Below, piece by piece: positions 1,455 to 20,730 of a stretch of 23,512 bases of DNA. Made by a program: the position numbers and the translations under genes. The stretch's first letter is position 1. Every line of letters begins with the position of its first letter. The DNA is from a virus (taxonomy: Duplodnaviria; Heunggongvirae; Uroviricota; Caudoviricetes), in the IMG/VR virus record IMGVR_UViG_2531839455_000001. One strand, given 5' to 3'. A model generated the notes under the pieces. That model was not told where the DNA came from and ran no database searches. It saw only the letters and a list, made by a program, of their open reading frames with translations.

Positions 1455-1458
1455 TAAG

Positions 1459-2622
1459 TTACACATCATTAGTACCTTCCTTATTTTTTGACTGGGACAA
1501 ATTTGGGACCGGTGGGTTCAGGATCGAGTCTATTTGCCGTGCGTGTTCGGTAAGGTGATTAGGTGCAAGGTGAGCATATCGACGAACCATTTCGATAGAC
1601 TCCCAGCCTCCCATTTCCTGTAACACTGACAACGGGACTCCGGCTTGAACCAGCCAACTTGCCCAGGTGTGTCTCAAGTCGTGAAATCTGAAATCATCAA
1701 TACCAGCCCGTCTCAGCGCCGCTTTCCAGGCTGTGTTTGCGTCATACCGCATCTTCCTTACTGTTGGCGCTTTCGTTCCGTCTGGTTTGGTACAGCTTTC
1801 CTTGTACACAAATACCCAACGGTGATGATTCCCGATTTGTTTTTTCAATACGCGACATGCAGTATCATTCAGCGCAACGCCAATTGCGCGGTTTGATTTA
1901 CTCTCTTCCGGGTTTATCCATGCCACCCGGCGCTGCATATCTATTTGTTGCCATTCAAGGTTGATGATGTTCGAGCGTCTTAAGCCTGTTGCCAGTGCAA
2001 ATTCAACAACAGACTTTAATGGCTCCGGACATTCATCAATCAGCCTTTGTGCTTCATGGGGCTCCAGCCAGCGGATCCGTTTATTCTTTGGTTGAGGCAC
2101 TTTAATAATTGGTGCCTTATCCAGCATTTTCCATTCACGCTCTGCGGCTCTTAGTAGGGCCTTTATAAATGAAAGATGCGTAGCCTTCGTTGCAACGGAC
2201 GCTGGTTTTGGCGTGTATTCTGGAACAGGTTTCCCTTTTTTTCTGCATGCTTCTGCCCTGAGTTTCCAGTTTTCCTCATGACGCCGGTTCGTCATTTTCT
2301 GCATTGCTGAATAAATTTTTGATTCAGTAATGTCTCTTAGTTGCATTCCTGCGAAATGTTGAAGCCAGAATCCGATCCGGCTTTTGTCATCGTCCAGTGA
2401 TTTTTTATGTGCTTTCTCTTCAAGCCACCTGACACACGCTTCCTCGAACGTTATATCAGGTATTTCACCAAGTTTGCTGACCCGCCATGCTTCAGCCTTT
2501 AGCTTGTCATGGAGTTCTGTCGCCTGCCTTTTGTCCTTTGTTCCAAGAGACTGTTTAAATCTTTTACCGTTCGGCAATGTGAAACTGGCGTACCATATTT
2601 CACCTCTGCGGAAGAGTGACAT
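1459..2622 (-). CDS. int: Tyrosine recombinase, P22-type phage integrase (387 aa)
   Basis: [25 protein letters not shown]...[16 protein letters not shown]...RRYAHL; C-terminal R..H..R..Y catalytic pattern; length and sequence match recalled P22 Int, whose attB is thrW. Confidence 0.9.
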
Positions 2623-2849
2623 TTTCTTTCCTCTGTTATGCCATCACCCGCGCTCACCTGGACAGTATGCAGCGGAGACTGAAGAGCCGCAATGCAGGCT
2701 TGTCGTGTTGTGAGGTAAGGAGATTTATTCTTAGTGGGATCTTTGCGTGTTGCCTGAAGACGCCCTGTGCGTATCCAGTTAATGGCAGTCGGTCTGGATA
2801 TCTTGAGAAAATGACAGGCCTCATCGAGTGTGAGGCTGTATGGCTCCAT
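2499..2849 (-). CDS. xis: Excisionase (116 aa); start taken at internal Met [29 protein letters not shown]
   Basis: Start ATG (2849-2847) overlaps the upstream stop as TAATG (translational coupling); winged-helix-like N-terminus; 3' end overlaps the int start by ~124 nt. The six-frame ORF extends to 2933 but upstream residues look non-native. Confidence 0.7.
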
Positions 2850-3154
2850 TATTTCACCTCTTGCTGTGACATTGTTGAAAAATGGATACCAGCTCGTTGC
2901 TGCCAGACGATCCAACCGAGAGTCATATCCCATGCCATGTATTCGTTATTGCCGTTTTTTGCTCTCCGACGATCTACTAAGTCACCGAAACGCTTTTCCA
3001 TGAATAATTCATAAGCTTCGCGTTCATCTGGTTCTACTTCCAGAGATAGGAGTGCGATTTCATAAGCACGGCGCTCAATATCGTCTCGCACGTCAAGGCT
3101 GCTGATACGCTCTTTAATTTCTTTAATCAGTTCTTTGTCGGTAAAAGTGGTCAT
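2849..3154 (-). CDS. yfdT: Small early prophage protein, YfdT-like (101 aa)
   Basis: ORF MTTFTDKELIKEIKERISSLDV...; coupled to neighbours by overlapping stop/start; size and position match recalled CPS-53 yfdT. Confidence 0.7.
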   Translation of the reverse strand: MTTFTDKELIKEIKERISSLDVRDDIERRAYEIALLSLEVEPDEREAYELFMEKRFGDLVDRRRAKNGNNEYMAWDMTLGWIVWQQRAGIHFSTMSQQEVK

Positions 3155-3516
3155 TATGCTCCAGCCTCCGGTGCTTTTGGCATTACTGCCCAGTGAGTGA
3201 TATTGACGTTTTCAAGGTCCCCGACCTGAAATGTCCACTGCCATTCTCCGGTTTCTTTTTGTCCCCAGGTGTACCAGAGAGAACGCCAGCCAATTAGCCA
3301 GCCTTCTCCGTTAGCATCGAATAACAAAACACTTTCATTTGCTGGTGGCAGTTCAGTTGACACTGGTATTACTTTGTTTTCCTGTGCTGCACATTTAGCT
3401 TCAAGCGCATCGAATTTACGCACCAGGTATTCAGCATCTGTTTCATTTACTTTCAGATCTCGCGGTACACATCTCCCACGAAGAAACCCTTCCATTTCGA
3501 AAACATTCATGCGCAT
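3154..3516 (-). CDS. yfdS: Early prophage protein, YfdS-like (120 aa)
   Basis: ORF MRMNVFEMEGFLRGRCVPRDLKVNE...; overlaps upstream and downstream genes (operon packing). Confidence 0.7.
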   Translation of the reverse strand: MRMNVFEMEGFLRGRCVPRDLKVNETDAEYLVRKFDALEAKCAAQENKVIPVSTELPPANESVLLFDANGEGWLIGWRSLWYTWGQKETGEWQWTFQVGDLENVNITHWAVMPKAPEAGA

Positions 3517-4043
3517 TTGCGTAACTCCGATAACTCGTTAAAGCGTTCCATAAACATCCCGTAGGCATGGCCCGGTGCCAGTGGAATCACGTTGAACATC
3601 TCTGTTGCCGGGATACCTTCCAGTACAGGCCAGAAAGAGCCATCATCAAGCCCGAGATCGCGGCGTTCGGTTGCCAGCATGATGAGATCGGCATATTTCA
3701 CGGGCGTACTCATAACTGGGGGTAACCCGTATTTCTCACGGATTACGGCGTCTATTTTTTCTTCCATTTGTTTATAGTCAGGAAGAAGGCGTTTCAGTGG
3801 TGCGGGAATGTCCTGGCAATACGCTTCTGTTGCATCATGCATTAACGCTTCAAAAGCAAATTCCTGCGGCACCAGCTGGCTGCAAAGAACCGCATGTTGG
3901 GCGACGCTGTAGAAGTGCGAAAGATGACCGGCAAAGCGACAGATATTTGAAAGGGAAACCGCGATATCGTTAATATCGATGTCGTCTTTATTTATCCTGT
4001 CATAATAAAAATGCTTCCCGGAAAAAGTTTTAATAAATGACAT
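3507..4043 (-). CDS. yfdR: HD-domain phosphohydrolase (5'-deoxynucleotidase YfdR-like), 178 aa
   Basis: HD motif in ...FEALMHDATEAYCQD...; start chosen at MSFIKTFSGKHFYY (ATG 4043) with GGAG 7 nt upstream; ORF track start at 4070 is probably 9 codons too long. Confidence 0.8.
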   Translation of the reverse strand: MSFIKTFSGKHFYYDRINKDDIDINDIAVSLSNICRFAGHLSHFYSVAQHAVLCSQLVPQEFAFEALMHDATEAYCQDIPAPLKRLLPDYKQMEEKIDAVIREKYGLPPVMSTPVKYADLIMLATERRDLGLDDGSFWPVLEGIPATEMFNVIPLAPGHAYGMFMERFNELSELRKCA

Positions 4044-4170
4044 TTTGTTCTCCACGTATATGCGCTGCACCGCGCTGAATTCTGGTAAAAAGAATCCCTC
4101 ACCATCCGGCGATTATTGAGTAAATTACGTTTCCATAAATGCCCCCGCAGGGGCATTTGCAGTAATGAAA

Positions 4171-4995
4171 TCAGGCGGTGAAAGTACCAATAAAGGTTTC
4201 TACTTTGCTGTCCTTGAATTTCTCAACAAGCAGCTCACGAAATTCGTTAGCCATTTCTTCCTGCACCGCCTCCAGCTGAATAATGCGCAGAACCAGTACA
4301 GGACGATCGCCAGTGATAATACTGAGGCGTAATTTAAACGGACGTTCTTTCAGACCTTCAAACGGAACGCATTTAAATTCAAATGCCACTGGCATAATGT
4401 CTTTGGTCTTCGCTTCGACAGACTCCATCAGGGAGCGTTTGCCGCTGAAGTCATTATCTTCAAAATCAGCGGTCTGGTTTGCTTCAATCGTGATTTTACG
4501 GACAGCCGCAGCCGCTTTTGTTGCCTGAATAGCGTCACCATTAGCATCAAAGCCCACAAGATAGTCGGCCCAGTCTTCAATCCATTCTGCTAGTGACTTC
4601 TGGGAGTTACGCTCGCCGTTAACAGACAACAGAGCAGAGAACGGTGCTGTCTTTTTCAGTTTGAGTGTGGCGGTGTTATCTGCGTGACCTGGTTCATCAA
4701 TAGTACCTAGGTTAAGCACACTGACGGCACGCATATTATCAGCATCGATAAAGCAGCGGGTGCCTTCATCTGCAAGATCTTTAGAATAACGGGTAAAATC
4801 ATCGATGCTGGCAGTGGAAAGCGCACCACGGAAACGGAAGCGATTTAAATTAAATTTTTCCAGATCATGAATGCGGAAATTCTCAGGCAATGCCACAGCA
4901 TCGGCACCAATCTTACTGATAATTTCATTAACACCCTGAGCAGAAATAAGGGCATGGATTTGATTAATTGCGGTTGCGTCTAAGTTCTGAGACAT
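4171..4995 (-). CDS. yfdQ: DUF2303-type prophage protein, YfdQ-like (274 aa)
   Basis: [29 protein letters not shown]...; length and order match recalled CPS-53 yfdQ. Confidence 0.75.
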
Positions 4996-5060
4996 AATAA
5001 GTCCTCACTATATAAAGATATTCAGTGATGAGATAAATAATCAGTTAATTAAAAACGATA

Positions 5061-5423
5061 TTAACGACCTGCTGCGCGGAGTTTTCCGTCAGGTTCACCG
5101 GCAAGAGTCAGCAACTGTCCCTGGTCTTCCTGCAGAATAGTCAGGCGACCACCGCGATTGACATACATCGGCGTTTCGGTGGTGTCTTCTTCGGAAATTT
5201 TCCCGCGGTTAGTCGGGCGAACATATGAGAGTTTGTGTTTGATTTTCACTCGGTTCTCATCAAACGGTTCGATTTCTAGGTTGAGCGAGACCTTACCTTT
5301 GGTTTTCGTGTTCATCACACCGGAAGCGACTTCACTGAGAACTGCGCCGATTTTGGTTTCAAATACGCCGCCGTCCAGCTCCCCGATAAATGCCTGCACA
5401 TCAGTACTGCGTTCGCTAGCCAT
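5061..5423 (-). CDS. yfdP: Early prophage protein, YfdP-like (120 aa)
   Basis: Start at MASERSTDVQAFIGELDGG (ATG 5423) preceded by GAGGAG with 7-nt spacer; the upstream part of the 226-aa ORF is Arg/Pro-rich GC-rich read-through, judged non-coding. Confidence 0.7.
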   Translation of the reverse strand: MASERSTDVQAFIGELDGGVFETKIGAVLSEVASGVMNTKTKGKVSLNLEIEPFDENRVKIKHKLSYVRPTNRGKISEEDTTETPMYVNRGGRLTILQEDQGQLLTLAGEPDGKLRAAGR

Positions 5424-5892
5424 TTTGCTGCTCCTCATCATATCGACCCTGCAAGGTCGGTTAGTTTCTCCACAAAACAGAGAAGAACACCTGCGGTGAC
5501 TGCCGCCCGGATGGATTGGGTTATGAGCCCGTCGTCCGGTGATGCTCTTCTCTGTTTTGTAAAAAGGACGGTACCAGCCGGAAGCAAGGGTACAAGCTGG
5601 TACCGCCAAGACTACACACAGCATAAAGTTGTGGTGCCGGGTGCCTCCCGGTGCCTGGCGAAGGTTGCACACCAGGCGGGTGGGTATCCACAGAAGGTCG
5701 ACTGTCAGCCTCAACCTTAACCCGCGTGCGCTGAGCCGCATTCACCACAACGCTAAGGATTCTCTCTGGTTGAAAATACTTAGCTGTTATGTGCCTGCTT
5801 TTAGCCACATCAGGCGAGGTGGACCTAGTTATTCCCCAACAACAAGGATTCGGTTAATCTGGATATCCCCAACAACAATAAGAGTATTCAAT

Positions 5893-6408
5893 GTGATCGC
5901 TGAATTAACGGCAGCAATGACGGCTATTCGTGAAATCGCCCAGATTGCAAAACTAATGAACGAGGCAAAAACTCAAGCTGAAGTAAATGCGGCTATTGGT
6001 GAGCTGAACTCAAAGCTTGCGTCTATTCAGCGCGAATGCGTGTCTCTCGTTGAACTGCTGGGCTCTTATCAAGAAATAAATGCTTCTCTCAAAGCTAAAA
6101 TTGCAGAATTCGAAAACTTTGAGGCTCAGACGGAAGGCTATATCCTTAACCAACTTGAGTCGGGTACTTTTGTATACTCGAAGGAGGTAATCGTGAACGG
6201 TGACAGCATAACCATGCATCTTTGCCCAAAATGTTTTGGACAAAAGATAGTATCGATACTTCAACCATTCCCGGTTAGCGAAGATGAGCTTTTTCATAAA
6301 AGCAGGTGCCTCCACTGTGAAAATAAGTTTCTGATGAATAAAAATCCGGATTACGTATCGCCTCCATCCATTGAGGAGTTGGCCAGAAAACTTAACGGCA
6401 ATCTGTAG
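5893..6408 (+). CDS. Hypothetical protein: N-terminal coiled-coil-like, C-terminal Cys-rich (CPKC...CLHC) zinc-ribbon-like; moron opposing the leftward early operon
   Basis: Protein-like ORF; candidate starts GTG 5893 (AAGAG 8 nt upstream) or ATG 5917; rho-independent terminator follows at 6448-6470. Confidence 0.5.
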   Translation: MIAELTAAMTAIREIAQIAKLMNEAKTQAEVNAAIGELNSKLASIQRECVSLVELLGSYQEINASLKAKIAEFENFEAQTEGYILNQLESGTFVYSKEVIVNGDSITMHLCPKCFGQKIVSILQPFPVSEDELFHKSRCLHCENKFLMNKNPDYVSPPSIEELARKLNGNL

Positions 6409-6447
6409 ATTGCTACTGTTGTGGATATCCAGATTGTTAAAGAGCGA

Positions 6448-6470
6448 AGCGTCCTATAGGGCGCTTTTTT
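6448..6470 (+). terminator. Rho-independent terminator after moron gene
   Basis: AGCGTCC-TATA-GGGCGCT stem-loop (one G-U pair) followed by TTTTT. Confidence 0.5.
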
Positions 6471-6550
6471 GTTGCTAACGAATCATCCTGGACTTCATAT
6501 GCTCCAGGGGGCTACTTCGTGGGCGTCCTGCCTGTTTGTTGTTTCTCTTG

Positions 6551-6585
6551 GGTACATTATGTATCTCAAAGGTACATTGTCAAGT
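6551..6585 (-). promoter_or_regulatory. Putative leftward early promoter (PL-like) with operator half-sites (OL)
   Basis: On minus strand: -35 TTGACA, 17-bp spacer, -10 CATAAT; two TGTACC half-sites overlap the promoter, same core as the OR palindromes. Confidence 0.45.
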
Positions 6586-6610
6586 ATAAAAAAACCTGCC
6601 GAAGCAGGTT
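6586..6610 (-). terminator. Rho-independent terminator downstream of repressor gene
   Basis: Minus strand AACCTGC-TTCG-GCAGGTT followed by T7. Confidence 0.6.
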
Positions 6611-6622
6611 CATAAACATTGA

Positions 6623-7297
6623 TTAGGCTTTGATTTTGTATCTTCTTGGTTTTCCTGAGAAAATCACAGTTCCAATTATAGAGCAATTACCGTTGATCTT
6701 AATGTAAGGCTCAGGCCAGTTTGGGTTTAACGCTTTGAGATAACGCTGTGTCCCATCTTCTATCAACCTTTTGAAGGTGGTTTCACCTGTATCGTGCATC
6801 AATGCAATAACGTCGTCACCGTGGCAGGCAGGTACTTCAGGATCGACAAAAATCATGTCTCCCGGGCGGTACTCATCAATCATTGAATCACCTATCACCC
6901 GCAAGATATAAGTCATTTCCCCACAGGGTACAGGGCAGGGATACGTTTCTGCTGTGCTCAAATCAACCTCAGAATATCCAACTTCTTTCCATGCTCCGGC
7001 CTGTACCCATGATATGACAGGGACTAATGTGATTTGTTTATTAGTGATTGAAACATCAGGTTTTTTTGTGATGTTCGTTGTCTGGTGTTCTTGATCGAGC
7101 CATCCGACAGGCAGGTCGAAACATTTTTCGATGTGTCGTGCCATGCTGTCACCGATATTTTTAGTAGCACCATCTCCCATAAACCTGCTGGTCTGGGTTG
7201 GCTCGCGATCAATCATAGTGGCAAAGGAAGAATTCCCGCCAACACCATCTCTCAGTTTTCTGGCGTTAGACCGCCGGATGTCATGGATTGTTTTCAT
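6623..7297 (-). CDS. cI: Phage CI/C2-type repressor (N-terminal HTH, C-terminal S24 LexA-like peptidase), 224 aa
   Basis: ORF MKTIHDIRRSNARKLRDG...; C-terminal region ...LRVIGDSMIDEYRPGDMIFVDP... typical of S24 autocleaving repressors; divergent from a cro-like gene with palindromic operators between. Confidence 0.85.
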   Translation of the reverse strand: MKTIHDIRRSNARKLRDGVGGNSSFATMIDREPTQTSRFMGDGATKNIGDSMARHIEKCFDLPVGWLDQEHQTTNITKKPDVSITNKQITLVPVISWVQAGAWKEVGYSEVDLSTAETYPCPVPCGEMTYILRVIGDSMIDEYRPGDMIFVDPEVPACHGDDVIALMHDTGETTFKRLIEDGTQRYLKALNPNWPEPYIKINGNCSIIGTVIFSGKPRRYKIKA

Positions 7298-7312
7298 AAC
7301 GAAATTAAAACC

Positions 7313-7382
7313 CTTGTACCGTTAAGGTACAAGTATCTTGAAGGTTCATTTCAATCATGTAATATGTACGCCGGAGGTACAT
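7313..7382. promoter_or_regulatory. OR-like operator/promoter region between cI and cro
   Basis: Perfect palindromes CTTGTACC-GTTAA-GGTACAAG (7313-7333) and ATGTAC-GCCGGAG-GTACAT (7364-7382); candidate PR -35 TTGAAG / -10 TAATAT between them. Confidence 0.6.
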
Positions 7383-7387
7383 ATTGT

Positions 7388-7588
7388 ATGAAAGCGTATT
7401 GGGACTCTTTAACCAAAGAACAGCAGGGCGAGTTGGCCGGAAAAGTTGGCTCAACACCTGGCTACTTACGGCTGGTTTTCAATGGCTATAAAAAAGCCAG
7501 TTTTGTGCTGGCTAAAAAACTTGAGCAATGCACGTCAGGTGCAATTACGAAATCTGACTTAAGACCGGATATCTATCCGAAAGATTAG
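7388..7588 (+). CDS. cro: Cro-like HTH regulator (66 aa)
   Basis: MKAYWDSLTKEQQGELAGKVGSTPGYLRLVFNGYKK...; GGAGG upstream (spacer ~10 nt); divergent from cI. ORF track start at 7085 lies antisense inside cI, so rejected. Confidence 0.7.
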   Translation: MKAYWDSLTKEQQGELAGKVGSTPGYLRLVFNGYKKASFVLAKKLEQCTSGAITKSDLRPDIYPKD

Positions 7589-7619
7589 CAGAACACTTTC
7601 AATTTTTAACCACAGAACG

Positions 7620-8189
7620 ATGAGGCTAATCGTGGGTAAGCATCACTGGAAAGTAGAAAAACAGCCTGAGTGGTACGTGAAAGCTGTCAGAAAAACTATC
7701 GCGGCGTTGCCGGGTGGTTACGCTGAAGCGGCTGACTGGCTCGATGTAACAGAAAACGCTTTATTCAACCGCCTTCGTGCAGATGGCGATCAGATTTTCC
7801 CGCTGGGATGGGCAATGGTTTTACAGCGTGCTGGTGGCACTCACTTCATTGCTGATGCTGTGGCGCAGTCTGCAAATGGCGTCTTTGTGTCTCTTCCTGA
7901 CGTCGAAGATGTGGACAACGCCGATATTAACCAGCGTCTGCTGGAAGTCATTGAACAGATCGGCAGTTATTCAAAACAGATTCGTTCAGCAATCGAAGAC
8001 GGTGTAGTGGAACCGCATGAGAAGACAGCAATTAACGACGAGCTGTATCTCTCAATTTCGAAGCTGCAGGAGCATGCAGCACTTGTCTACAAAATTTTTT
8101 GCATTTCAGAAAGTAATGACGCCCGCGAGTGTGCAGCTCCGGGCGTCGTGGCGTCGATTGCTTCTGGTTGTGGAGAAACTAACGCATGA
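7620..8189 (+). CDS. CII-position regulatory protein (YdaT-like?), 189 aa; start may be GTG 7632
   Basis: Protein-like ORF directly downstream of cro in the rightward early operon; family assignment from position and weak recall only. Confidence 0.45.
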
Positions 8190-8524
8190 ACAGTTTAACA
8201 ACACACTACCGTCGCTCGCAACTGATTGCGCTTCCTGTACCGGGTGGAAAAGCGAAGGTGGAATATTGCTATGCAGTGAATGTACCAGGTGACAGGGAAA
8301 TTGTAACCCACAGCTTTGCAGAGTGGGCTGTGGGTGATTTCAACCGGCAGAAGGAGACAGTCCTTTGCGACAAGTTAACCGCTGGTTCAAAGATCACTAC
8401 GGAGTGCCCGTCAGAGTCATTCGTTGGGAGCCGGAAACACAACGGGTTATCTACCTCCGCGAAGGTTATGAGCATGAATGCTTCAGTCCGCTCGAACAGT
8501 TTCGTCGTAAATTCAGGGAAATAG
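8186..8524 (+). CDS. Hypothetical early protein; possibly frameshifted (see findings)
   Basis: ATG overlaps upstream stop (ATGA); N-terminal ~50 residues protein-like, C-terminal part low-complexity, while the alternative frame 8338-8544 looks more protein-like. Confidence 0.3.
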
Positions 8525-8533
8525 AGGTCGGTC

Positions 8534-9475
8534 ATGAGCACTAAATTAACCGGCTATGTATGGGATGGTTGCGCTGCATCAGGCATGAAGTTATCCAGCG
8601 TGGCAATTATGGCCCGCCTGGCTGATTTCAGTAATGACGAAGGTGTGTGCTGGCCATCAATTGAAACCATTGCCCGTCAGATTGGCGCGGGGATGAGTAC
8701 CGTCAGAACGGCTATCGCACGGCTGGAAGCAGAAGGCTGGTTAACGCGTAAGGCGCGTCGCCAGGGTAACCGCAATGCGTCGAATGTTTATCAGCTTAAC
8801 GTTGCGAAGCTTCAGGCAGCGGCATTTTCTCAACTGTCAGATTCTGACCCGTCAAAATCTGACGCATCAAAATCTGACCCGTCAAAATTTGATGCGTCGA
8901 AATCTGGCAAAAAAGCGGGTTTTCACCCGTCAGAATCTGGCGGGGATCCGTCAGTAAAATCAAAACATGATCCGTCAGATAAAAAACCTTCTCGTCCGGA
9001 CGCTTCGCAACCGGACACGCAGACGGCTGAACAGGATTTTTTAACTCGCCATCCTGATGCGGTTGTATTCAGCCCTAAAAAGCGCCAGTGGGGGACGCAG
9101 GATGATTTGACCTGCGCACAGTGGCTCTGGAAAAAAATCATCGCCCTGTACGAGCAGGCTGCCGAATGTGACGGCGAGGTGGTTCGTCCCAAAGAACCGA
9201 ACTGGACAGCCTGGGCAAACGAAATTCGCCTGATGTGTGTGCAGGATGGTCGTACTCACAAACAAATCTGCGAGATGTACAGCCGCGTCAGCCGCGATCC
9301 GTTCTGGTGCCGTAACGTGCTCAGCCCGTCGAAGCTGCGGGAAAAATGGGATGAGCTTTCCCTGCGCTTATCGCCGTCCGTAAGCACGTACACCGAAAAA
9401 CGCGAAGACCCGTACTTCAAATCCAGTTACGACAACGTGGACTACAGCCAGATCCCGGCAGGATTCAGGGGGTGA
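8534..9475 (+). CDS. Lambda O-like replication initiator (N-terminal winged-helix), 313 aa, iterons embedded
   Basis: N-terminus ...DEGVCWPSIETIARQIGAGMSTVRTAIARLEAEGWL...; central repeat-encoded segment DPSKSDASKSDPSKFDASKS coincides with DNA iterons. Confidence 0.7.
   Translation: MSTKLTGYVWDGCAASGMKLSSVAIMARLADFSNDEGVCWPSIETIARQIGAGMSTVRTAIARLEAEGWLTRKARRQGNRNASNVYQLNVAKLQAAAFSQLSDSDPSKSDASKSDPSKFDASKSGKKAGFHPSESGGDPSVKSKHDPSDKKPSRPDASQPDTQTAEQDFLTRHPDAVVFSPKKRQWGTQDDLTCAQWLWKKIIALYEQAAECDGEVVRPKEPNWTAWANEIRLMCVQDGRTHKQICEMYSRVSRDPFWCRNVLSPSKLREKWDELSLRLSPSVSTYTEKREDPYFKSSYDNVDYSQIPAGFRG
8828..8990. repeat. Iteron array (putative prophage ori) inside replication gene
   Basis: Tandem ~15-bp units TCTGACCCGTCAAAA / TCTGACGCATCAAAA / TCTGACCCGTCAAAA / TTTGATGCGTCGAAA and degenerate copies (..CCGTCAGAATCT.., ..TCCGTCAGTAAAATC.., ..TCCGTCAGATAAAAAA). 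Confidence 0.6.
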
Positions 9476-9490
9476 TCATGAGTCTGTTAA

Positions 9491-10009
9491 ATGACGTTCA
9501 GAAATTCATTGAAGCCCAAAGATATTGTTGGTGTATGGACCGTATGTCACGGGCATATTGCACCGCCAGATATTCCGGCAGGCTTCGTGGCTGTTTTCAA
9601 CAGTGATGAGGCATCGTGGCATCTCGTTGAAGACCATCGAGGTAAAACGGTTTATGACGTGGCATCAGGGGACGCGTTATTTATTTCTGAACTCGGTCCG
9701 TTACCGGAAAATGTTACTTGGTTGTCACCGGAAGGGGAATATCAGAAGTGGAACGGCACAGCCTGGGTGAAGGATACGGAAGCAGAAAAACTGTTCCGGA
9801 TCCGGGAGGCGGAAGAAACAAAAAACAGCCTGATGCAGGTAGCCAGTGAGCATATTGCGCCGCTTCAGGATGCTGCAGATCTGGAAATCGCAACGGAGGA
9901 AGAAACCTCGTTGCTTGAAGCCTGGAAGAAGTATCGGGTGTTGCTGAATCGTGTTGATACATCAACTGCACCTGATATTGAGTGGCCTGCAATCCCTGTT
10001 ATGGAATAA
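9491..10009 (+). pseudogene. Tail fibre assembly (Tfa) gene remnant: conserved C-terminal portion only, fused to an unrelated short N-terminus
   Basis: ...[35 protein letters not shown]...[16 protein letters not shown]...[22 protein letters not shown] matches the recalled Tfa C-terminal domain; canonical Tfa N-terminus absent; no tail fibre gene upstream. Confidence 0.65.
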
Positions 10010-10562
10010 TCGTTCCTGTTGTAGCCACAGTCACGTCATATACAAGAACTTGCCGGCCTAAGAAGAGTTCGTGCTGATTTTGAATATAAAATCAGCATTA
10101 CAACGCCCGAAATACCCAGGCTAAAAAATTTCTTAGGACATTATCAGCTGGCGATACATAGATGGACTGGATACTAGACCGATAGAGGCGCTGTATGCGT
10201 CATCTTGTCGTGATGCTGGCGAAGTTGTGCGAACGAAGTATTAACTTTTGCAGCCTAGCTGATTCAATTGATGCAGCCACACTAACGGGGCGCTTTTTTC
10301 CATGTAATGGTTGTAGAAGATGTTACTGAGAGGGATTAAATGAAACAGCAAATACGTCATATGTTAGAGCATGTTGTGGTTGACTGTTGAACACACCTAT
10401 CACAAATGTGCTTCTTTAGAAAGAGAATTTACATAAGCAAATTGCAACATGTTTTTTTTCTGAGTAAATAGTATGATTAACAATGCTGACTACCATTTTC
10501 TTACATGGCGAACCTAATTAAGAATTAAACGCGAGTAGATTACCCGCTTTAGAGGAGGATTT

Positions 10563-11504
10563 ATGTCCGGTTACTGTTTTTACTCTCAGGATGCATTAGC
10601 CTTAGCCCAGGCAGCTGGTGTTGATGTAATAATAAACGAGTATGCTGAGAAGAATAAAAAACAGACATATGTTCTTTGTCGTCCCCTGTCAAATGAGGAT
10701 GTAAAGTATGATTATGACCAAGCGATAGCGGTATTTTCGGCTGGTATAAAACCTTTTTTTATGAATTTAGGAGATGACGTCGAACTCTTTGAAGAGTATC
10801 AAGAGGATTTTCTAGAGGATGTATCATATTTAGCAGAGAAATTTAAGTATCGTAGTAAAATTGGAAGAAAAAAGACATGGCAAGATTTATTTGAAGTACT
10901 TTCTGTTGGTGATGCCGATTTCAGTAAGCTGGAGGTTGAAACTAAAGAAAGTAGAATAATTGATTTGCTAATCTCGCTTATTGTGGGAAGTATTAACGAT
11001 ACTTCAAGAATTAATCTTGAAGCAAGTAATTTATTAGATACAATAAAATCAAAGATTATTTTATTTGATACTGATCAAACAAAATTCGTTTTCCAAAGTG
11101 GAATTGGAAAAAAGACTGTAATACAAGGCTTGGCTGGTTCGGGGAAAACAGAACTCCTTTTACATAAATTAAAAGAGGTTTATTTAAGGAACCCTGATGC
11201 TAAAATTGCATTTACTTGTTTTAATAAAATACTTGCATCTACAATGAGAACTAGGATACCAGAGTTTTTTGATTTTATGCGAGTGGAAAAGCAAATTGAA
11301 TGGGGTACGAAACTTTTTTGTTTTAACTCTTGGGGTTTGACTAAAGATCCCTTTTCTGGGATGTATAGATATATATGTCATTATTACGAAATTCCATTCG
11401 GTGGTTTTGGCAACGGAGATTTCGATGCTCTTTGCAAAAAAGCCATTTTGGATATAAAAAAAGTGGGCGGTCTGATGAAAAAGCTCTCGATTATGTGTTT
11501 ATAG
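10563..11504 (+). CDS. UvrD-like SF1 helicase, N-terminal segment (unknown ~190-aa N-domain + Walker A); reading frame ends shortly after an A7 run
   Basis: AGAGGAGG RBS before ATG; Walker A GLAGSGKTELLLHK (nt ~11127-11168); AT-rich; frame continues sensibly in the -1 frame after 11456-11462. Confidence 0.7.
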   Translation: MSGYCFYSQDALALAQAAGVDVIINEYAEKNKKQTYVLCRPLSNEDVKYDYDQAIAVFSAGIKPFFMNLGDDVELFEEYQEDFLEDVSYLAEKFKYRSKIGRKKTWQDLFEVLSVGDADFSKLEVETKESRIIDLLISLIVGSINDTSRINLEASNLLDTIKSKIILFDTDQTKFVFQSGIGKKTVIQGLAGSGKTELLLHKLKEVYLRNPDAKIAFTCFNKILASTMRTRIPEFFDFMRVEKQIEWGTKLFCFNSWGLTKDPFSGMYRYICHYYEIPFGGFGNGDFDALCKKAILDIKKVGGLMKKLSIMCL

Positions 11505-12550
11505 ATGAAAGCCAAGATTTTCCACAAAGCTTCATTGAACTATGTGAAATGGTTACATCTAAAAAACTATATGTAGCGGGCGATGTATTTCAAAATATAT
11601 TTATGCCGATTAATGATAACGTGAATCGAGCAGATATAGTTCTTAAAAAATGTTATCGCACAGATCCAAAGAACTTAATGTTTTCTCATGCACTAGGAAT
11701 GGGACTTTATGAGAAACCGGTGCTTCGGTGGTTGAAAGAGACTGAGTGGGATTCTTGTGGATATAAATATAATAAGGTTGGGGATAGAGTACATTTATCT
11801 AGGGATCCGTTAAGACGCTTTGAAGATATTCCAAAAAATCATAAAAGTACGGCTATTCATTTACTAAAAGAAGTGGATAATGGTCCTGATAAAATAGTTG
11901 AAATTATTAAGGATATTCAGGCCCGCAATCCTACTTTAGAGCAAGGAGATATAGCAGTCATTTTCCTTGATGCTAGTGGTTATATTTATGATTATATTCA
12001 ATCACTAAAATCAAAAGTCAAGTTGCAGCTTGGTTGGGACTCTAATATTTCACATGAGACAAAATCAAAACAAGATGGGAAGCTTTTTATTTCCAATATA
12101 AACAATGCAAAAGGGCTTGAGTTCCCATTTGTTATTTGTTTTGCTATGAAATTAGTAAAGAGAGCAAACTTTCGAAATGCTCTGTATACTATGATGGCTA
12201 GATCTTTTTTAGAAAGCCATTTAGTTTTAAATAATGATAATGAAAATCCGGCAATGCCTACTATTATTGAAGGTTTAGATTTTCTCAATAAAAATGATTA
12301 TATGGATGTAAGACTTCCGTCGGATGAGGAAATAAACAATCAAAAGGATTATATTATTTTGGATGAGTCTACCTCTATTAATCAAATGGTTAGAAAATAT
12401 TGTGAAGATAAAAAATCCACACCTCGCTTAATAGCAAAAGTTACTCACACTGTAGAAACTATAATAGCAGGTCTTGATGATGATGATGTCGATGATGACT
12501 ATATAAATAGATTGATTGAAATAGAATATATAAGGAATAAAAAGTTATGA
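11375..12550 (+). CDS. UvrD-like SF1 helicase, C-terminal segment (helicase motifs II-VI); meaningful coding begins near 11462
   Basis: Motifs DYVFIDESQDF (II), YVAGDVFQNIF (III), CYRT (IV), AKGLEFPFVICF (VI); first ~29 codons of the ORF are an out-of-frame overlap with the N-terminal segment. Confidence 0.7.
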   Translation: MSLLRNSIRWFWQRRFRCSLQKSHFGYKKSGRSDEKALDYVFIDESQDFPQSFIELCEMVTSKKLYVAGDVFQNIFMPINDNVNRADIVLKKCYRTDPKNLMFSHALGMGLYEKPVLRWLKETEWDSCGYKYNKVGDRVHLSRDPLRRFEDIPKNHKSTAIHLLKEVDNGPDKIVEIIKDIQARNPTLEQGDIAVIFLDASGYIYDYIQSLKSKVKLQLGWDSNISHETKSKQDGKLFISNINNAKGLEFPFVICFAMKLVKRANFRNALYTMMARSFLESHLVLNNDNENPAMPTIIEGLDFLNKNDYMDVRLPSDEEINNQKDYIILDESTSINQMVRKYCEDKKSTPRLIAKVTHTVETIIAGLDDDDVDDDYINRLIEIEYIRNKKL

Positions 12551-13185
12551 GTTTTTATTTCTTTAATAATGTACCTACAGTGTACCTTGAAAAGTTCTGC
12601 GCTGTAAGAGATGCATTTTCCAATCTGGAAAATCTTCTTATTGCTGCGGAAATTATAAATACATGTCATGACTGTTGGAATAAAGAAACAAATGATTTCG
12701 ATTTGCTAATAAGTACTGGTACTCATAAGCGAATTCTGGTGAGGAAACCGGATGGTTTTTTTTCTATGAATTTACCATTTCAAGTAATTGAGTATGAAAG
12801 CAATATCTGTTTTAACTATGATGCCTATGGGCTTCCTGTTAATGCAGAGTTTATTTCTCGATGCAGGAATGTAATAAATACTTGCAGTAATGGCGCTTTT
12901 TCTCAGGAGGCAATTGCTCTTGAATTGTGTGATAACTTTGATCGAGATATTCAAAGTGCTATAAATTATGCTGATGCAATTTGTTCATTGTTGTTAGTTG
13001 ATCATGGGTATTTTAGGTTTGATGATGATCCTAAAAATGCGAAGGATAAAGTGCATCCAAGATATCACTTTGATTTTTTCTTCAATAATTCTACTAATGT
13101 AAAGATAGGCTGTAATACTCGTTTGGATGAATCATTTTTTTTAGAACTATTTGATGTAAATAAAGACCGCCCCTATCTGGCTTGA
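12547..13185 (+). CDS. Hypothetical 212-aa protein, translationally coupled partner of the helicase
   Basis: ATG overlaps helicase stop (ATGA); AT-rich, Cys/His/Asp-rich (LVDHGYFRFDDDPKNAKDKVHPRYHFDF); strong hairpin directly after stop. Confidence 0.65.
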   Translation: MSFYFFNNVPTVYLEKFCAVRDAFSNLENLLIAAEIINTCHDCWNKETNDFDLLISTGTHKRILVRKPDGFFSMNLPFQVIEYESNICFNYDAYGLPVNAEFISRCRNVINTCSNGAFSQEAIALELCDNFDRDIQSAINYADAICSLLLVDHGYFRFDDDPKNAKDKVHPRYHFDFFFNNSTNVKIGCNTRLDESFFLELFDVNKDRPYLA

Positions 13186-13187
13186 AT

Positions 13188-13213
13188 TATAAGCGCCCAT
13201 CAGGGCGCTTATA
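13188..13213. terminator. Stable hairpin (11-bp stem) immediately 3' of the cassette; no U-tract
   Basis: TATAAGCGCCC-ATCA-GGGCGCTTATA. Confidence 0.3.
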
Positions 13214-13635
13214 GGGTGAGATGAGTATTATAAAGAGTCTGTTTTGGGTAGTGTTTTTATAAATATTTACATATATCATAACTTTTGCCAATGTAATATT
13301 TGAATTCTTCTATTACGTATTTAAGTATCGTTTGGCTTTTTTTCTTTGGCTATCCTGCACTCAATAAGCATAAAAATCCATTTACATTGTTTTTGCATAT
13401 GACATGTTTTTAATTGTTCGAATGGATCGTGTTAGTACTATTTTATCTGGTAAAAAGCAGATGTAGATATTAGGAAGTTTTTTTTGAATGATAATGGAGC
13501 AATTAAGATTTTTTATTCTAACCATTCCCTAGAAATACTCTGCCTAAAAAATAGACATAATATGGCAACCATAATAGGCCGGTTTTTGGTGGCATGAAAG
13601 GATTTTTAATCCTTGTGCCTGACACCTTATCATGA

Positions 13636-14504
13636 TTATGAAAGACCGTAGTATTTATTTAGCGCGGTGGTAGCGGCTTGAGTTGCTACAGCTATTCCTA
13701 TACCCAAAATACCATGGGCTGCTTTACTTGCAATATTTGCCAGCCATTTACTAACAGATTGACCGTATTCATCACGTCTGTTAGCTATCGGGCCATCTTC
13801 ACCAATAGCAATTTCTAAATCGTTTACATCAGATTTAGGAAACCCCTGAGCTAAGAGATATTCTTTTAATGATTCAATGTTGTTTTTTACGATATGGTTA
13901 TTCACAGAAAATGAGTTTTCATTTCCGAAGTTTATAACAGTATTGTCTCCAAAAATTGAGTTATGAAACAATGAAGACGTGTCGATATTTTTAAGTTTTT
14001 CTGTCATGTTTTTCTCATCTGATATTTCAGAAACTTGATCAGAAAGTTCAAGTATAAAATCAAGTAGCCGTGATCTGACCTGAGTTAAGATGGAAGTGAA
14101 GTTATGTAGCGCGATCTCTTTATAACAGCATGTTAACTCATAGCCTCTATCGATACCTTTGCAATATTTAACTAATGCATAATCTAAAGGAATTGGCTGC
14201 TGCAGGGTATGGCTATCACCAGCATTGGTTACTAGGTCTTCGATTTGACTGATTGAAAGTCTAACTTTACTGGTTGTAGCATCTTCATAGTCATCTTCAC
14301 TGAGATAGCCAATCGGTAAAGGAAAAGCTCTATATAGGCGAATGCCATTGTTCAGATCTGCAAGAATTCTTGTGCCAACAATTCTATAATCGGGAAGGGA
14401 AACTGAATCAGAATAACCGTTTATCTCATGATTTACCCATGCAGCAAGCTCCTTTTTCCCGATAGAGAAAAGAAGGATCTTTGTTTTTATGAGAGCATCT
14501 GTTG
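13636..14504 (-). pseudogene. Abi-like gene (AbiTii-type N-terminal domain suspected), 3' portion; gene split by IS66-family insertion
   Basis: Minus-strand frame is open from the IS boundary (14504) to the stop at 13636 (...KELAAWVNHEINGYSDS...MTEKLKNIDTSS...AAHGILGIGIAVATQAATTALNKYYGLS); the ORF track shows only the distal 123 aa because there is no in-frame ATG upstream. Confidence 0.6.
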
Positions 14505-14534
14505 GTAAGCGGCTCGTCAGAACCGTATTGATAT

Positions 14535-16106
14535 TTACTGAGAGCTCAGATCAACTTTCCAGGGCAACAGATCGCGTACCCGGTTTGCCGGCCAGTCCTG
14601 GATATGTTCAATGACGTAGCGCAGCCACTTTTCTGGCTCCACATTGTTCAGACGGCATGTGCCGATCAGCGAGTACAACACCGCCGCATGTTCACCACCG
14701 CTGTCGGAACCCGCGAACATCCACTTTTTCCGGCCTACGGCCACTCCCCGTAAGGCGTTCTCTGCGATGTTGTTGTCGATTTCCACCCAGCCATTACTGC
14801 AGTACACGTTCAGTGCATCCCACTGTTTCAGCAGGTATGCGAACGCTTTTGCCGTATCTGAGTGACGCGACAGTGTTTTCATCTGTTGCTGTATCCAGTC
14901 ATACAGTGACTGCATCAGTGGCGCGGCTCTGGTTTTTCTTGCCGCCAGACGCTGTTCTGCTGAACAGCCCCGGACCTCTGCCTCGATGGCATACAGTTCA
15001 CCGATACGCTGCAGGGCTTCCGTGGTGATGTCGGTGGGCGCTCTTGCATGCACATCGTGGATTTTTCTCCGGGCATGAGCCATACACGCGGCTTCCGTTA
15101 TTCTGCCGGATTCGTATAACGCCCGGTAACCACCGTAAGCATCGGCCTGAAGCACACCGCTGTAACCGGCCAGGTGATTTTGTGGATGGATACCTTTCCG
15201 GTCCGGACTGTACGCGAACCAGACCGCCGGGGGCATCTGTGAACCGGCGTTACGGTCATCACGGACGTAGACCCACAGCCGGGCTGTCCGGGTTTTACCG
15301 CTGCCCGGCTCCTGGACCGGGACGGGGATATCATCAGCATGGACTTTACCGGGCATCAGCACATACTGGCGCAGGACGTCATACAGCGGCTCCAGTAGTT
15401 CAGCAACGGCACCTGTCCAGCGCCCCAGTGTGGCACGGCTCAGCTCCACACCCTGACGGCGGTATATCTCTGACTGGCGGTATAACGGCAGATGGTCTGC
15501 ATATTTTCCGGTGACGACATGGGCCAGGAGCCCCGCTCCGGCATAACTGCGTGCAATGGGTTTTGAAGGTACTGGTGCCTGCACGATATGGTCGCACCGA
15601 CAACAGGCCAGTTTCGGACGTTGTGTTTCGATAACCTTAAAGGCGCTGCTGATAAGCTCCAGTTGCTCTGACACATCACATCCCAGAGAACTGAGTTCAC
15701 CACCACAGGCAGGACAGCATTCCTCTTCCGGCCGGATAACCCGGGTTTCACGGGGAAGTGAGGCCGGTAACGGTTTACGGGCTGAAGACTGGCGCAGGGC
15801 GGATGGCAGTACCGGGTCATATTGCTCACCCAGCGTTTCCGCCATTTCTTCCTGAAGTGCGCTGATTCGCTCCTGTGCTTCCTGTATCTGCCGTTCGGTT
15901 TTTGCACGAAGTTTTTCTGAGCTTTTACCGAACTGCATACGTTGCAGTTTCGCAACCAGCGCCTTCAGCCGGTTGATTTCGGAAGCATAAGCCGCCACCC
16001 GCTGTGAGAGCAGGCGGTTGTATTCAGCCATCTGGCGTATGGTGTCCTGTTGCGTCTGCAACAGTGCCCGCAGGCGGGCGTTCTCATGAGCAAGTGAGGT
16101 GTCCAT
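14535..16106 (-). CDS. tnpC: IS66-family transposase TnpC (523 aa)
   Basis: [20 protein letters not shown]... with leucine-zipper-like N-terminus, CxxC...CxxC zinc-finger and DDE-type core, matching recalled IS66 Orf3. Confidence 0.9.
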
Positions 16107-16125
16107 ATCCTCACTTTACAACGGG

Positions 16126-16473
16126 TTATATGCGGATTCCAGCGCGTTCCGTTCGTTTCGGGTGCTTCCAGTTGATACCTTCAAGAAGCATGGATAACTG
16201 AGCCGGAGTAAGGTGCACCTTGCCGTCACGGGTGACTGGCCAGACGAAGCGGCCCCGCTCCAGGCGTTTGGTGAAGAGGCACAGTCCGTCACTGTCAGCC
16301 CACAACACTTTTATCTGGTCACCCCGGCGTCCGCGGAAGATGAACAGGTGTCCGGAGAACGGGTCATCCTTCAGGACGTTCTGAACTTTTGATGCCAGGC
16401 CGTTAAAGCCATTTCGCATATCGGTGATACCTGCAACCAGCCAGATACGCGAACCTGCAGGGAGAGATATCAT
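16126..16473 (-). CDS. tnpB: IS66-family TnpB (Orf2), 115 aa
   Basis: MISLPAGSRIWLVAGITDMRNGFNGLASKVQ...GHLFIFRGRRGDQIKVLWAD..., the recalled conserved IS66 Orf2 signature. Confidence 0.85.
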   Translation of the reverse strand: MISLPAGSRIWLVAGITDMRNGFNGLASKVQNVLKDDPFSGHLFIFRGRRGDQIKVLWADSDGLCLFTKRLERGRFVWPVTRDGKVHLTPAQLSMLLEGINWKHPKRTERAGIRI

Positions 16474-16679
16474 CAGTGGCTGCTCCCTTTTATTTCGCGG
16501 ATAAGTGTCTGTAATAACGCCGGCGTCAGTTTACCTTTAAGCCTGAGAGTTCCGGCCGGCAGAACCAGCTCACAACACAGACTGTCGGACGGTGTATTTA
16601 TCTGCTCTGGTTCCTGTGCGGGGGCCGGGATTTTATTATCCGGCTCCGGCGTTAACGTCACGGGAAGCAGTGCCGGCAT
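16473..16679 (-). CDS. IS66-internal small ORF (68 aa), stop overlaps tnpB start; possibly part of the accessory protein
   Basis: ATGA overlap with tnpB; Pro-rich; no in-frame ATG upstream; uncertain. Confidence 0.3.
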   Translation of the reverse strand: MPALLPVTLTPEPDNKIPAPAQEPEQINTPSDSLCCELVLPAGTLRLKGKLTPALLQTLIREIKGSSH

Positions 16680-16809
16680 ATTTTTTCCGGAAGGCAGCAG
16701 GCCACCTTTCCGGTATTGATGGTCGCCAGTTGAAGAGCAGGTTATCGTTGATTCCGTTTTCCCGGGGCGATCTGCGCCACACAGGCTCCGGGCTGCAGTG
16801 ACTGCTCCA

Positions 16810-17154
16810 CTAAGGCGATTTTAAACTCATAAGGGAAGTTGGGCCGCCGGGGGACGTTTTTTTACCACGGGGGCGTTCGGATATAACGGTGCTTTCAGGA
16901 CGTACGACTGGTACCGTGGAAAATTGTCCGTAAAGGCAGGCATCAAGTTCCTGCTCCGACATGCCTGCGGGCAAAGGCCACGAAAGGCCAGCTCTCCGAA
17001 AGCGCACGAACATACTACAAACTGTTGATTTTGGTACACCCAGGCGACGCCCGGCCACAACCCGGGGTAAATGTTCTTCAAAGTGAAGACGTAAAGCTTC
17101 AGTGATCCAGGTCCGGTGTTTCATACGATAGTGTCCATTAAAAATGATGGACAT
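16810..17154 (-). CDS. tnpA: IS66-family accessory protein TnpA (Orf1), HTH-containing, ~104-114 aa
   Basis: First ORF inside the left IR, same strand as tnpB/tnpC; HTH-like ...LGVPKSTVCSMFVRFRRAGLSWPLP...; alternative start MKHRTWITE at 17124. Confidence 0.5.
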   Translation of the reverse strand: MSIIFNGHYRMKHRTWITEALRLHFEEHLPRVVAGRRLGVPKSTVCSMFVRFRRAGLSWPLPAGMSEQELDACLYGQFSTVPVVRPESTVISERPRGKKTSPGGPTSLMSLKSP

Positions 17155-17207
17155 TATTTTTGTAGAGCCGGAGGAAACAGACCAGACGGTTTAAATGAGC
17201 CGGTTAC

Positions 17208-17267
17208 ATCTGTTGTGTCTTCATCACCAGTACTTAGTATCTGAATGATTTCTTGCAGTTGGTTCAT
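17208..17267 (-). pseudogene. Abi-like gene, 5' portion (first 18-20 codons, MNQLQEIIQILSTGDEDT...), separated from its 3' portion by the IS66 element
   Basis: Removing the IS and one TSD copy joins this segment in frame with 14504-13636 to give a continuous 306-codon ORF. Confidence 0.55.
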
Positions 17268-17281
17268 ATGTCTTATCCCAT

Positions 17282-17305
17282 AAAAAAGCCCGCATAAGCG
17301 GGCTT
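17282..17305 (-). terminator. Rho-independent terminator (minus strand) just upstream of the Abi-like start
   Basis: Minus strand AAGCCCGC-TTAT-GCGGGCTT followed by T6. Confidence 0.5.
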
Positions 17306-17434
17306 CTATGTCACTAAAGAGCCGCGGCTCCTTTGCGTATCCTTTTTTGTCTCCTCACCGTCTGGTCGGTGTCCTGCTGAGACTGCTAACTTCCTGTTTT
17401 TGTTGGTGTTGTCCTTACACTGTCCAATCATGAT

Positions 17435-17462
17435 TGGTGGAGCTGGCGGGAGTTGAACCCGC
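17435..17462 (-). other. ssrA (tmRNA) 3'-end fragment, att-site-like footprint
   Basis: Minus strand reads GCGGGTTCAACTCCCGCCAGCTCCACCA, identical to the recalled 3' terminus of E. coli tmRNA; no matching 5' half, so not a complete RNA gene. Confidence 0.6.
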
Positions 17463-17849
17463 TGACACGTCGTATGCAAGAACTTGCTGCGGCTGGATGG
17501 TGGACTTTCGATAGTGCGAGTATTGAATGATTTCCATCTATTACAGATTTTACCGTATTTCGGCATGAATGAAACTGAATATCCTCCCACCGACCCTCCA
17601 TGACTTTACACCACTGTCTCTGGGGCTGCTATGTGCCAAGAGCGGACGTTACAATCATCAGCCTATCCATTAACTAATGGGAATAGGTCACGATAGTTGT
17701 TGAATGAGCCCTTGTATAGTTTCAAAAATTGCTTTGATTTAATACATTGATACTGTTAGATTCTGAAGGATCCTATCAGTTTTAACACAATAGGTTTGTA
17801 TAAAAACATCCTGCAGCGTTTCAAATATTTTTCATGAGGTATTTATAAA

Positions 17850-20050: not shown

Positions 20051-20730
<680 letters not shown>

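Follow-up and report, generated by a model that had tools for sequence, protein, structure and literature searches.

The question raised by this locus is why an intact phage replication gene should be followed so closely by the 3' end of a tail fibre assembly gene. The locus occupies positions 9476-10009 of IMG/VR record IMGVR_UViG_2531839455_000001, a stretch of 23,512 nucleotides (nt) assigned to the Caudoviricetes and analysed here at its full length (the window). An 'O-like' replication gene ends at 9475, and an open reading frame (ORF) with an ATG start runs from 9491 to 10009, as stated by a first-pass annotation made from the letters alone. As that annotation also claimed, no Q, head or tail gene follows the O-like gene. 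Very probably the region is a scar, left when a lambdoid prophage that had recently integrated at the thrW tRNA gene of Escherichia coli suffered an internal deletion. The internal deletion of the late region that had been proposed is strongly supported, as a sister prophage with the same arms carries 31.8 kb between them. The position of the joints, their formation and the origin of the neighbouring accessory genes, on the other hand, have to be described anew.

Read in this way, the scar would show one lineage associated with enterotoxigenic E. coli disarming a fresh prophage while keeping its immunity, integration and accessory genes. Such disarming is textbook prophage domestication, and the scar itself is ordinary decay. 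The recurrence of its breakpoints may matter more. The same tfa nucleotide ends at least 19 independent fusions, including ones in DLP12 and Rac. If a directed process were responsible, prophage inactivation would not be purely random erosion, and the presence of tfa fragments as constant leftovers in E. coli cryptic prophages would be explained.

Mapping of the deletion

Strain 2013C-4991 (NZ_CP027355) has, at the same site, a complete sister prophage of 47.4 kb that permits mapping at base level, and alignment to intact relatives, which the first-pass annotation had recommended, placed both joints to the base against this sister. Window positions 1-9518 align with the left arm of the sister, and identity to this arm (L002) ends at 9518, inside yfdN. 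The right arm corresponds to window positions 9555-14504 and 17207-19670, with the gap between them representing the ISCro1 insertion of the window. In this arm identity begins at 9555, a position corresponding to nt 131 of tfa, which is intact in NZ_CP027355. The early regions of phages SfII, SfIV and SfV are shared up to exactly 9518, and PhiR49_1, SfII and SfIV run from the O-like gene into yfdN, exactly where the window diverges. PhiR49_1 has the early gene order of the window and then Q. The sister and PhiR49_1 both pass straight from the O-like gene to yfdN, so the P-like helicase loader that was thought to be missing does not belong to the lost material.

The arms of the two prophages differ at 5 positions over about 8,100 nt on the left (1455-9518) and at none over 7,400 nt on the right, while the host gene proA (window 1-1254) differs from that of strain 2013C-4991 at 18 of 1,254 nt. 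Because the prophage arms are near-identical while proA has diverged, both the acquisition of the phage and the deletion must be recent. The same phage has entered two different host backgrounds recently, and the deletion is younger still. The sister is annotated with an internal stop in rrrD and with frameshifts in rzpD and the minor tail L gene (L002 19881-20835 and L003 26689-27386), and it may itself be defective, or its assembly may hold errors.

The scar has the structure yfdN' / CA / rrrD fragment / ATA / 'tfa. The yfdN gene, of the PerC family, starts with a GTG at 9472 that overlaps the stop codon of the O-like gene. Its 5' remnant of 47 nt (9472-9518, plus strand) consists of 15 codons and 2 nt and ends in codon 16. 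The intact YfdN has 164 amino acids (aa) and a Pfam PerC match, and reading in the yfdN frame now stops after 44 codons, at 9604-9606. At joint J1 (9517-9518; break 9518/9519) yfdN is joined to rrrD across 2 shared nucleotides, CA. The internal fragment of rrrD, codons 43-55 (9517-9557, plus strand), includes 36 nt unique to rrrD (9519-9554), or 41 nt with the shared ends, and it keeps its native orientation and colinear order. All 41 positions match the sister's own rrrD at L002 20006-20046 (E = 4e-15 against that locus, 3e-11 against 28 Gb), and the same 41-mer sits in the rrrD of about 3,900 E. coli genomes. At joint J2 (9555-9557; break 9554/9555) rrrD is joined to tfa across 3 shared nucleotides, ATA. 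The 3' 455 nt of tfa that follow (9555-10009, plus strand), comprising codons 45-194 and the stop codon, are 100% identical to tfa of NZ_CP027355 from nt 131.

The first-pass annotation had placed the junction at 9476 and had the tfa remnant follow the O-like gene directly. In fact the 47 nt of yfdN and the rrrD piece of 36-41 nt intervene, and the joints lie inside the ORF. Its statement that all lysis genes are missing is correct insofar as no intact lysis gene follows, but the rrrD piece survives.

Relative to the sister, 6,886 bp are missing at J1 and 24,940 bp at J2, or 31.8 kb in total. The first part of the lost block comprises the rest of yfdN, a LexA-like gene, rusA, a KilA-N gene, a DUF968 gene and Q. 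It is followed by two hypothetical genes, a methyltransferase gene, essD, most of rrrD, rzpD and iss, and finally by the terminase, portal, head and tail genes, J, lom, stf and the first 130 nt of tfa. The element can presumably no longer lyse the cell or make particles. It has retained int, a putative xis, the cI-like repressor, cro, the O-like gene, both att sites and the accessory cargo. Carriers of the scar are rare, being limited to 5 of 5,426 complete genomes and one IMG/VR contig, all identical.

Recurrent breakpoints in tfa and rrrD

The two ends joined at J2 appear not to lie at random positions; they coincide with breakpoints that are reused in other E. coli prophages. When the chimeric ORF was compared with a protein collection and identical joints were collapsed, the 120 best matches contained about 35 distinct chimeras (among proteins P0002-P0048). 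Within this set 19 distinct left partners join at tfa codon 44/45, another 7 joints form a cluster at codons 16-20, leaving only about 9 at other positions. The joint at codon 44/45, termed HS2, reads ...GATA^TTGCACC (window 9555, tfa nt 131-134; sequence at the hotspot, GATATTGCACC). Its left partners include YfdN at another codon, lambda-type gpA (3 points), another terminase (2 points), the major capsid protein, ParB/YnaK (2 points), Q, J, tail protein T, minor tail protein Z, Stf (3 positions) and others. At the DNA level, eight joints (the window, L007, L009, L011, L060, L201, L294 and L295) keep tfa from (A)TTGCACC, usually with TA or ATA shared.

Single loci can show the site used repeatedly. 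At the DLP12 locus gpA is cut at three different points and joined each time at HS2, forming a nested series, and the Rac locus has three HS2 joints, J(100), ynaK(91) and ynaK(140). In L295 (4988-8208) the Q-porin-holin-rrrD block is inverted, and one end of the inversion abuts HS2. L294 and L295 are related prophages, and both have McrBC-like cargo after tfa. The HS2 joint of L060 is out of frame, indicating that the recurrence is mutational rather than selected via the protein. In unbiased DNA samples, about 237 copies of tfa included 2 junctions at HS2 (L060 and L201) and one K-12-type derivative at codon 50 (L140). The reciprocal arrangement, with tfa 1-44 joined to something downstream, occurred in 0 of 150 copies, a small sample for judging polarity. 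The recurrence at HS2, like that at the rrrD site described below, is a solid observation, and no description of a tfa deletion hotspot was found in the literature.

A different truncated tfa is common in gut metagenomes, where 8 of 116 copies share identical in-frame flanks and a joint at nt 94, again just 5' of ATT(C)CACC. It is carried by the metagenome contigs L134, L136, L137, L164, L169, L224, L226 and L235 and also by L068 and L128, with L149 and L168 possibly being frameshifted variants.

The left-hand end of J2 is also a repeated one. This site, rrrD-37, reads ...GGGCATA^ (CACGGGCATA^; L002 20046, window 9554-9557, rrrD nt 166) and is joined to four partners, namely tfa in the window, the S49 protease gene in L294, Rz in L066 (at codon 4, by a 338-bp deletion) and an intergenic site 1.3 kb downstream in L313. 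About 125 copies of rrrD in the unbiased DNA samples included 2 breaks at rrrD-37. Around it is an imperfect palindrome of 28 nt, TGTATGGACCGTATGTCACGGGCATACA (dG -7.5 kcal/mol), whose 3' arm contains the break, although the palindrome score is marginal (z about -1.6). Rz codon 4 (L002 20385) is itself a right-hand end, common to L066 and L343.

Such recurrence brings up the alternative that J2 and similar joints were produced by a site-directed process and not by random recombination. This alternative concerns mechanism only, and the outcome would still be a deletion scar. A 3' end would be made or protected at ...GATA^TTGCACC and at ...GGGCATA^ and then joined at 1-4 nt, usually TA. Candidates are a sequence-specific nuclease or recombinase acting at pseudo-sites, a quasi-palindrome that stalls a polymerase, or an exonuclease stop. 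While the 19 left partners of HS2, the eight joints at (A)TTGCACC, the nested series in DLP12 and Rac, the inversion end in L295 and the four right partners of the palindromic rrrD-37 are all consistent with this proposal, no single mechanism fits both sites, and the unbiased samples of tfa and rrrD hold few truncated copies. The proposal is therefore regarded as tentative and as somewhat less probable than its converse.

Candidate causes were considered for each site. Single-stranded DNA structure at HS2 was not significant (z = -0.25 to -1.4). A crossover site for the Din-family recombinases (Pin/Gin/Cin) was rejected; the pix sites of e14 (AAACCTTGGTTTGGGAGAAGG) belong to stfP and stfE and are unlike HS2, and neither HS2 nor rrrD-37 contains a 26-bp site with AAACC-NN-GGTTT symmetry. 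A RecBCD end limited by Chi was sought as 5'-GCTGGTGG-3' on the 3'-ending strand, 4-6 nt from the break. Beside HS2 a correctly oriented Chi-like octamer lies about 6 nt away, but the bottom strand matches at only 6 of 8 positions in the window allele (TCTGGCGG) and at 7 of 8 in another allele (TCTGGTGG), and this candidate was also rejected. No Chi-like sequence lies at the right distance from rrrD-37. To our knowledge HS2 has no convincing match to the lambda operators, the dif/XerC arms, the shufflon sfx sites, the phiX/pC194 nick site, cosN or the thrW att core, and none is claimed. The Rpn nucleases were rejected as a cause as well, as a study of them reports no sequence specificity (PMC5350276).

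In a more general form, the decay of lambdoid prophages in E. coli may be partly channelled through a few exact, recurrent and polar ends, a possibility that is advanced with reserve and that we would not yet bet on. The ends in question would be tfa codon 44/45, the weaker zone at tfa codons 16-20 and the rrrD end ...GGGCATA^. Deletions, and occasionally inversions, would remove the lysis and morphogenesis genes but leave the early region and the cargo past tfa untouched, and J2 would be a case in which two such ends were joined. The cause would be a sequence-directed DNA end, arising from a nuclease or nickase, a quasi-palindrome stall or a protected 3' end. Joining by TA microhomology would come next, sometimes with serial template switches.

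One event or two

Whatever determined the ends, the joints of the scar would have been made by illegitimate, microhomology-mediated joining over 2-3 nt. The shared CA, the shared ATA and the colinear island of 36 nt fit microhomology template switching or end joining, as do the three islands of L294. The scar of that prophage (7895-8348) has the order rrrD' / S49' 268 nt / tape-measure' 84 nt / stf' about 115 nt / 'tfa, and its pieces are all colinear with overlaps of 1-3 nt.

The scar may have been formed in one complex event, consisting of two template switches or of a three-fragment joining, and this is slightly favoured here. The preference arises because the tiny island is colinear and because L294 has the same multi-island architecture. 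Under two independent deletions it is unlikely that the 36-nt island would have been left by chance, as only about 40 nt out of tens of kilobases would have escaped. Two successive deletions nevertheless have close to an even chance. No carrier of J1 only or J2 only was detected with a 76-nt junction query in the 5,426 complete genomes, the exact J2 31-mer had no matches in metagenomes, and the sole match of the J1 31-mer in IMG/VR carries both joints.

The chimeric reading frame

The ORF that spans the scar (9491-10009, plus strand, 172 aa) is composed of three parts. The first 9 codons come from yfdN in a frame other than its own, codons 10-22 encode RrrD residues 43-55 in frame, and codons 23-172 encode Tfa residues 45-194, also in frame. 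The short N-terminus, which had been described as unrelated, is indeed not Tfa, but it can be traced to 9 yfdN codons and 13 RrrD codons. From I23 on, the ORF is 100% identical to residues 45-194 of the full-length Tfa of 194 aa, in agreement with the C-terminal match noted earlier. The Pfam domain Caudo_TAP (PF02413) is retained whole (E = 2.9e-44, profile positions 1-130 of 131, ORF residues 50-169). The ORF thus has the domain but is not a full-length Tfa. In place of Tfa residues 1-44 it has 22 unrelated residues; every full-length copy sampled shows strong conservation of the lost segment. The cognate stf is absent from the window and is found in the sister at L003 17888-21127.

Inspection of the sequence upstream of the ATG at 9491 gave no convincing Shine-Dalgarno sequence. 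Ribosomes arriving from the O-like gene by coupling would read in the yfdN frame and terminate at 9604-9606. The NCBI pipeline PGAP annotates 9557-10009 as a pseudogene with a missing N-terminus, and PADLOC gave no match for the chimeric ORF. A one-residue variant of the ORF is recorded in NCBI assemblies (P0001). It seems likely that the ORF is an accidental by-product of the deletion, a chimeric pseudogene with no cognate tail fibre to fold.

It could be argued instead that the ORF encodes a selected and working tail-fibre chaperone, truncated at its N-terminus, which might act in trans on fibres made by other prophages of the same cell or serve as a decoy against superinfecting phages. Besides the full domain in a frame open from an ATG, in-frame fusions of the type X-Tfa(45-194) recur. 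The genomes that match the region hold a median of 3 matching places, nearly all of them tail fibre assembly genes, so that potential client fibres exist. This function is nonetheless very unlikely, considering that the 44 conserved residues and stf are gone, that translation would face the obstacles described above, that the frame is annotated as a pseudogene and that the same site is also used out of frame in L060. Furthermore, the Tfa remnant is 100% identical to the parent allele, leaving no time for selection to show.

Weighing the deletion against other readings

Two further readings are highly improbable. The first-pass annotation had suggested a single deletion with its ends in the CCGGCAGG(N)TTC motifs that the O-like gene and tfa share, with import of the AT-rich, defence-like cargo. 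The motif, matching over 11 of 12 nt, does occur exactly twice in the window (CCGGCAGGNTTC at 9455 and 9575), but neither copy is at a joint. Both copies survive 120 bp apart in their native context, within sequence 100% colinear with the intact prophage, and therefore are not the crossover, as a microhomology-mediated deletion would have left one copy at the joint. With the same cargo also downstream of the intact tfa in the sister, the base-level alignment refutes this model, and its probability is close to nil. A natively small element or phage satellite, with the order O-like gene, short Tfa-like gene and cargo, would agree with the presence of int, repressor, replication gene, cargo and intact att sites within 18.3 kb, but it can practically be dismissed, whether modelled on phage-inducible chromosomal islands or on P4, given that this order is confined to the 5 identical complete genomes and one contig, that the joint holds out-of-frame yfdN and a lysozyme-gene fragment, and that identity to a 47-kb prophage exceeds 99.9% in every part. 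The first-pass annotation had named one finding as contradicting a deletion, namely homologous intact elements, such as satellites, in which this gene order comes with a full-length protein. None was encountered; the 5 of 5,426 genomes with this order were all 100% identical.

Several considerations weigh against the deletion as described, or at least against parts of it. The sister is possibly not the exact parent, given its rrrD stop and the frameshifts in rzpD and the minor tail L gene. The missing intermediates are expected under a one-event or a two-event model alike if the lineage is narrow. The recurrence of both J2 ends speaks against plain random illegitimate recombination as the process. 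Lastly, the complete Caudo_TAP domain in an open frame with an ATG leaves room for residual activity.

The element and its host locus

The window represents the proA-thrW region of E. coli and matches five complete chromosomes (strains 504239, 67-1, TW11681 and S1-NGR-02-A, and LR883000) at 99.97-100%. The thrW gene for tRNA-Thr was found at 1369-1444 by ARAGORN. The left attachment site, attL, consists of the 3' part of thrW and 10 nt (1399-1454, plus strand), and attR, a partial copy of thrW (19624-19679, plus strand), is an exact direct repeat of it over 56 nt. These repeats bound an element of 18.3 kb at the tRNA gene, with int (1459-2577, minus strand) adjoining attL. The element is an SfII/SfIV/PhiR49-like lambdoid prophage integrated at thrW, which combines an early region as in SfII, SfIV and PhiR49_1 with a lambda-type tail.

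In the left arm, int is followed by a putative xis, yfdT, yfdR, yfdQ and yfdP, then by the LexA-family cI-like repressor gene (ymfK), the cro-like ymfT, ymfL, a DUF4222 gene and the O-like gene. The scar comes next and then an AT-rich block up to attR. The O-like gene (8534-9475, plus strand) is intact and is the last undamaged gene of the early-right operon. Its product, a putative replication initiator, has a Pfam HTH_36 match and weak DnaD_N and RP-C matches. It is 99-100% identical to its counterparts in phages PhiR49_1, SfII, SfIV and Kati, which are annotated as 'DNA replication protein O' or 'primosomal protein'. Inside the gene, at 8843-8906, a 15-nt repeat (TCTGACCCGTCAAAA) is present in 4.3 copies. 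These repeats are iteron-like and may mark the prophage replication origin.

Beyond attR a second island, CP4-6-like, follows in tandem (19680-23512). It carries the ykfI/yafW toxin-antitoxin genes, antirestriction and JAB genes, ykfF, ykfB and a yfjR-type gene.

The accessory region

Pfam and PADLOC matches and the GC profile delimit an AT-rich accessory region (31-40% GC) at 10563-14532. It contains a UvrD-like helicase gene, ORFs of 212 and 123 aa and a remnant of AbiTii, and it is colinear with and 99.98% identical to the sequence downstream of the intact tfa in L003. The last cargo gene before attR, at 17850-18956 (plus strand), has a SMEK domain according to Pfam and PADLOC. The first-pass annotation took this cargo to have replaced the late region. 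The helicase, 212-aa, AbiTii and SMEK genes lie between tfa and attR in the sister too; the cargo is not a replacement but ancestral to the prophage, like the b region of lambda.

An insertion sequence (IS) of the IS66 family, ISCro1 (14505-17206, minus strand), splits the AbiTii gene of the window and is not present in the sister. The abortive-infection gene interrupted in this way (gene and insertion, window 14041-17206) is intact in the sister and encodes 306 aa there. The UvrD-like helicase gene is split into ORFs at 10563-11504 and 11375-12550 by a 1-nt deletion in an A-run at 11456. NZ_CP025859 has a single helicase gene of 662 aa there, and the change in the window is a genuine frameshift or else an error of sequencing. 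Compared with NZ_CP025859, the window also has four single-base insertions, at 16723, 16764, 16849 and 16875, which all lie inside the tnpA region of the IS66-family element and in their pattern look like assembly error.

Comparison with known systems

With respect to mechanism, a close parallel is template switching of the kind known as microhomology-mediated break-induced replication or fork stalling and template switching (MMBIR/FoSTeS). It was described for human copy-number variants and for stressed E. coli, and it predicts non-recurrent endpoints (PMC2621351). The window resembles it in having joints of 2-3 nt and a short colinear stretch copied from between the breakpoints, and L294 resembles it in having several islands. 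In contrast to its predictions, one or both endpoints recur here. Deletion hotspots associated with palindromes and quasi-palindromes offer a second comparison and were reportedly described by Glickman and Ripley in 1984 for lacI. Like these, rrrD-37 lies in a palindrome arm and the repeats at the joints are very short. In contrast, the score of rrrD-37 is marginal, and the tfa hotspot has no comparable palindrome.

With respect to outcome, the element is a further case of the familiar defective lambdoid prophage, of the kind represented by CPS-53, e14 and DLP12. It has att repeats at a tRNA gene with an integrase, it has lost lysis and morphogenesis genes, and truncated or chimeric gene remnants (yfdN', the rrrD fragment and 'tfa) stand at the joint. 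In e14, YmfN (oweE and aaaE) is likewise annotated in the K-12 RefSeq record as a fusion, 'chimeric replication protein/phage terminase', between a late gene and a replication gene from an early region of the same ymfK/ymfT/ymfL type. The right partner in e14, however, is a terminase and not tfa, and the product is one long ORF.

In DLP12, the aaaD'/tfaD fusion is like the window in that an upstream phage gene, here the terminase gene gpA, is fused to tfa at HS2. The variants join gpA ending in ...GSDY, ...RNTL or ...IGTD to IAPPDIP, while K-12 reads ...RNTL/IPAGF, which corresponds to an HS2 joint plus a 15-nt slip between GATATT repeats. The K-12 tfaD (L013 4640-4670) lacks the 15 nt GCACCGCCAGATATT relative to the HS2-type joint of other strains, a loss consistent with slippage from one GATATT copy of tfa to the other. 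Unlike the window, DLP12 has a terminase as partner, so Q and the lysis genes are kept, and there is no short island.

Another close parallel is CPS-53 (KplE1) of K-12, which has homologous yfdT, yfdR, yfdQ, yfdP, O-like yfdO and yfdN as well as att repeats, and which is still able to excise (PMC2951348). An internal deletion there joined yfdM, a 5' piece of a methyltransferase gene, to the tail-fibre remnants yfdL, yfdK and tfaS. In contrast to the window, CPS-53 occupies the argW site, has other breakpoints, has lost its immunity region and keeps yfdN whole. The cargo also differs, being the gtr serotype-conversion operon in CPS-53 and the helicase, AbiTii and SMEK set in the window.

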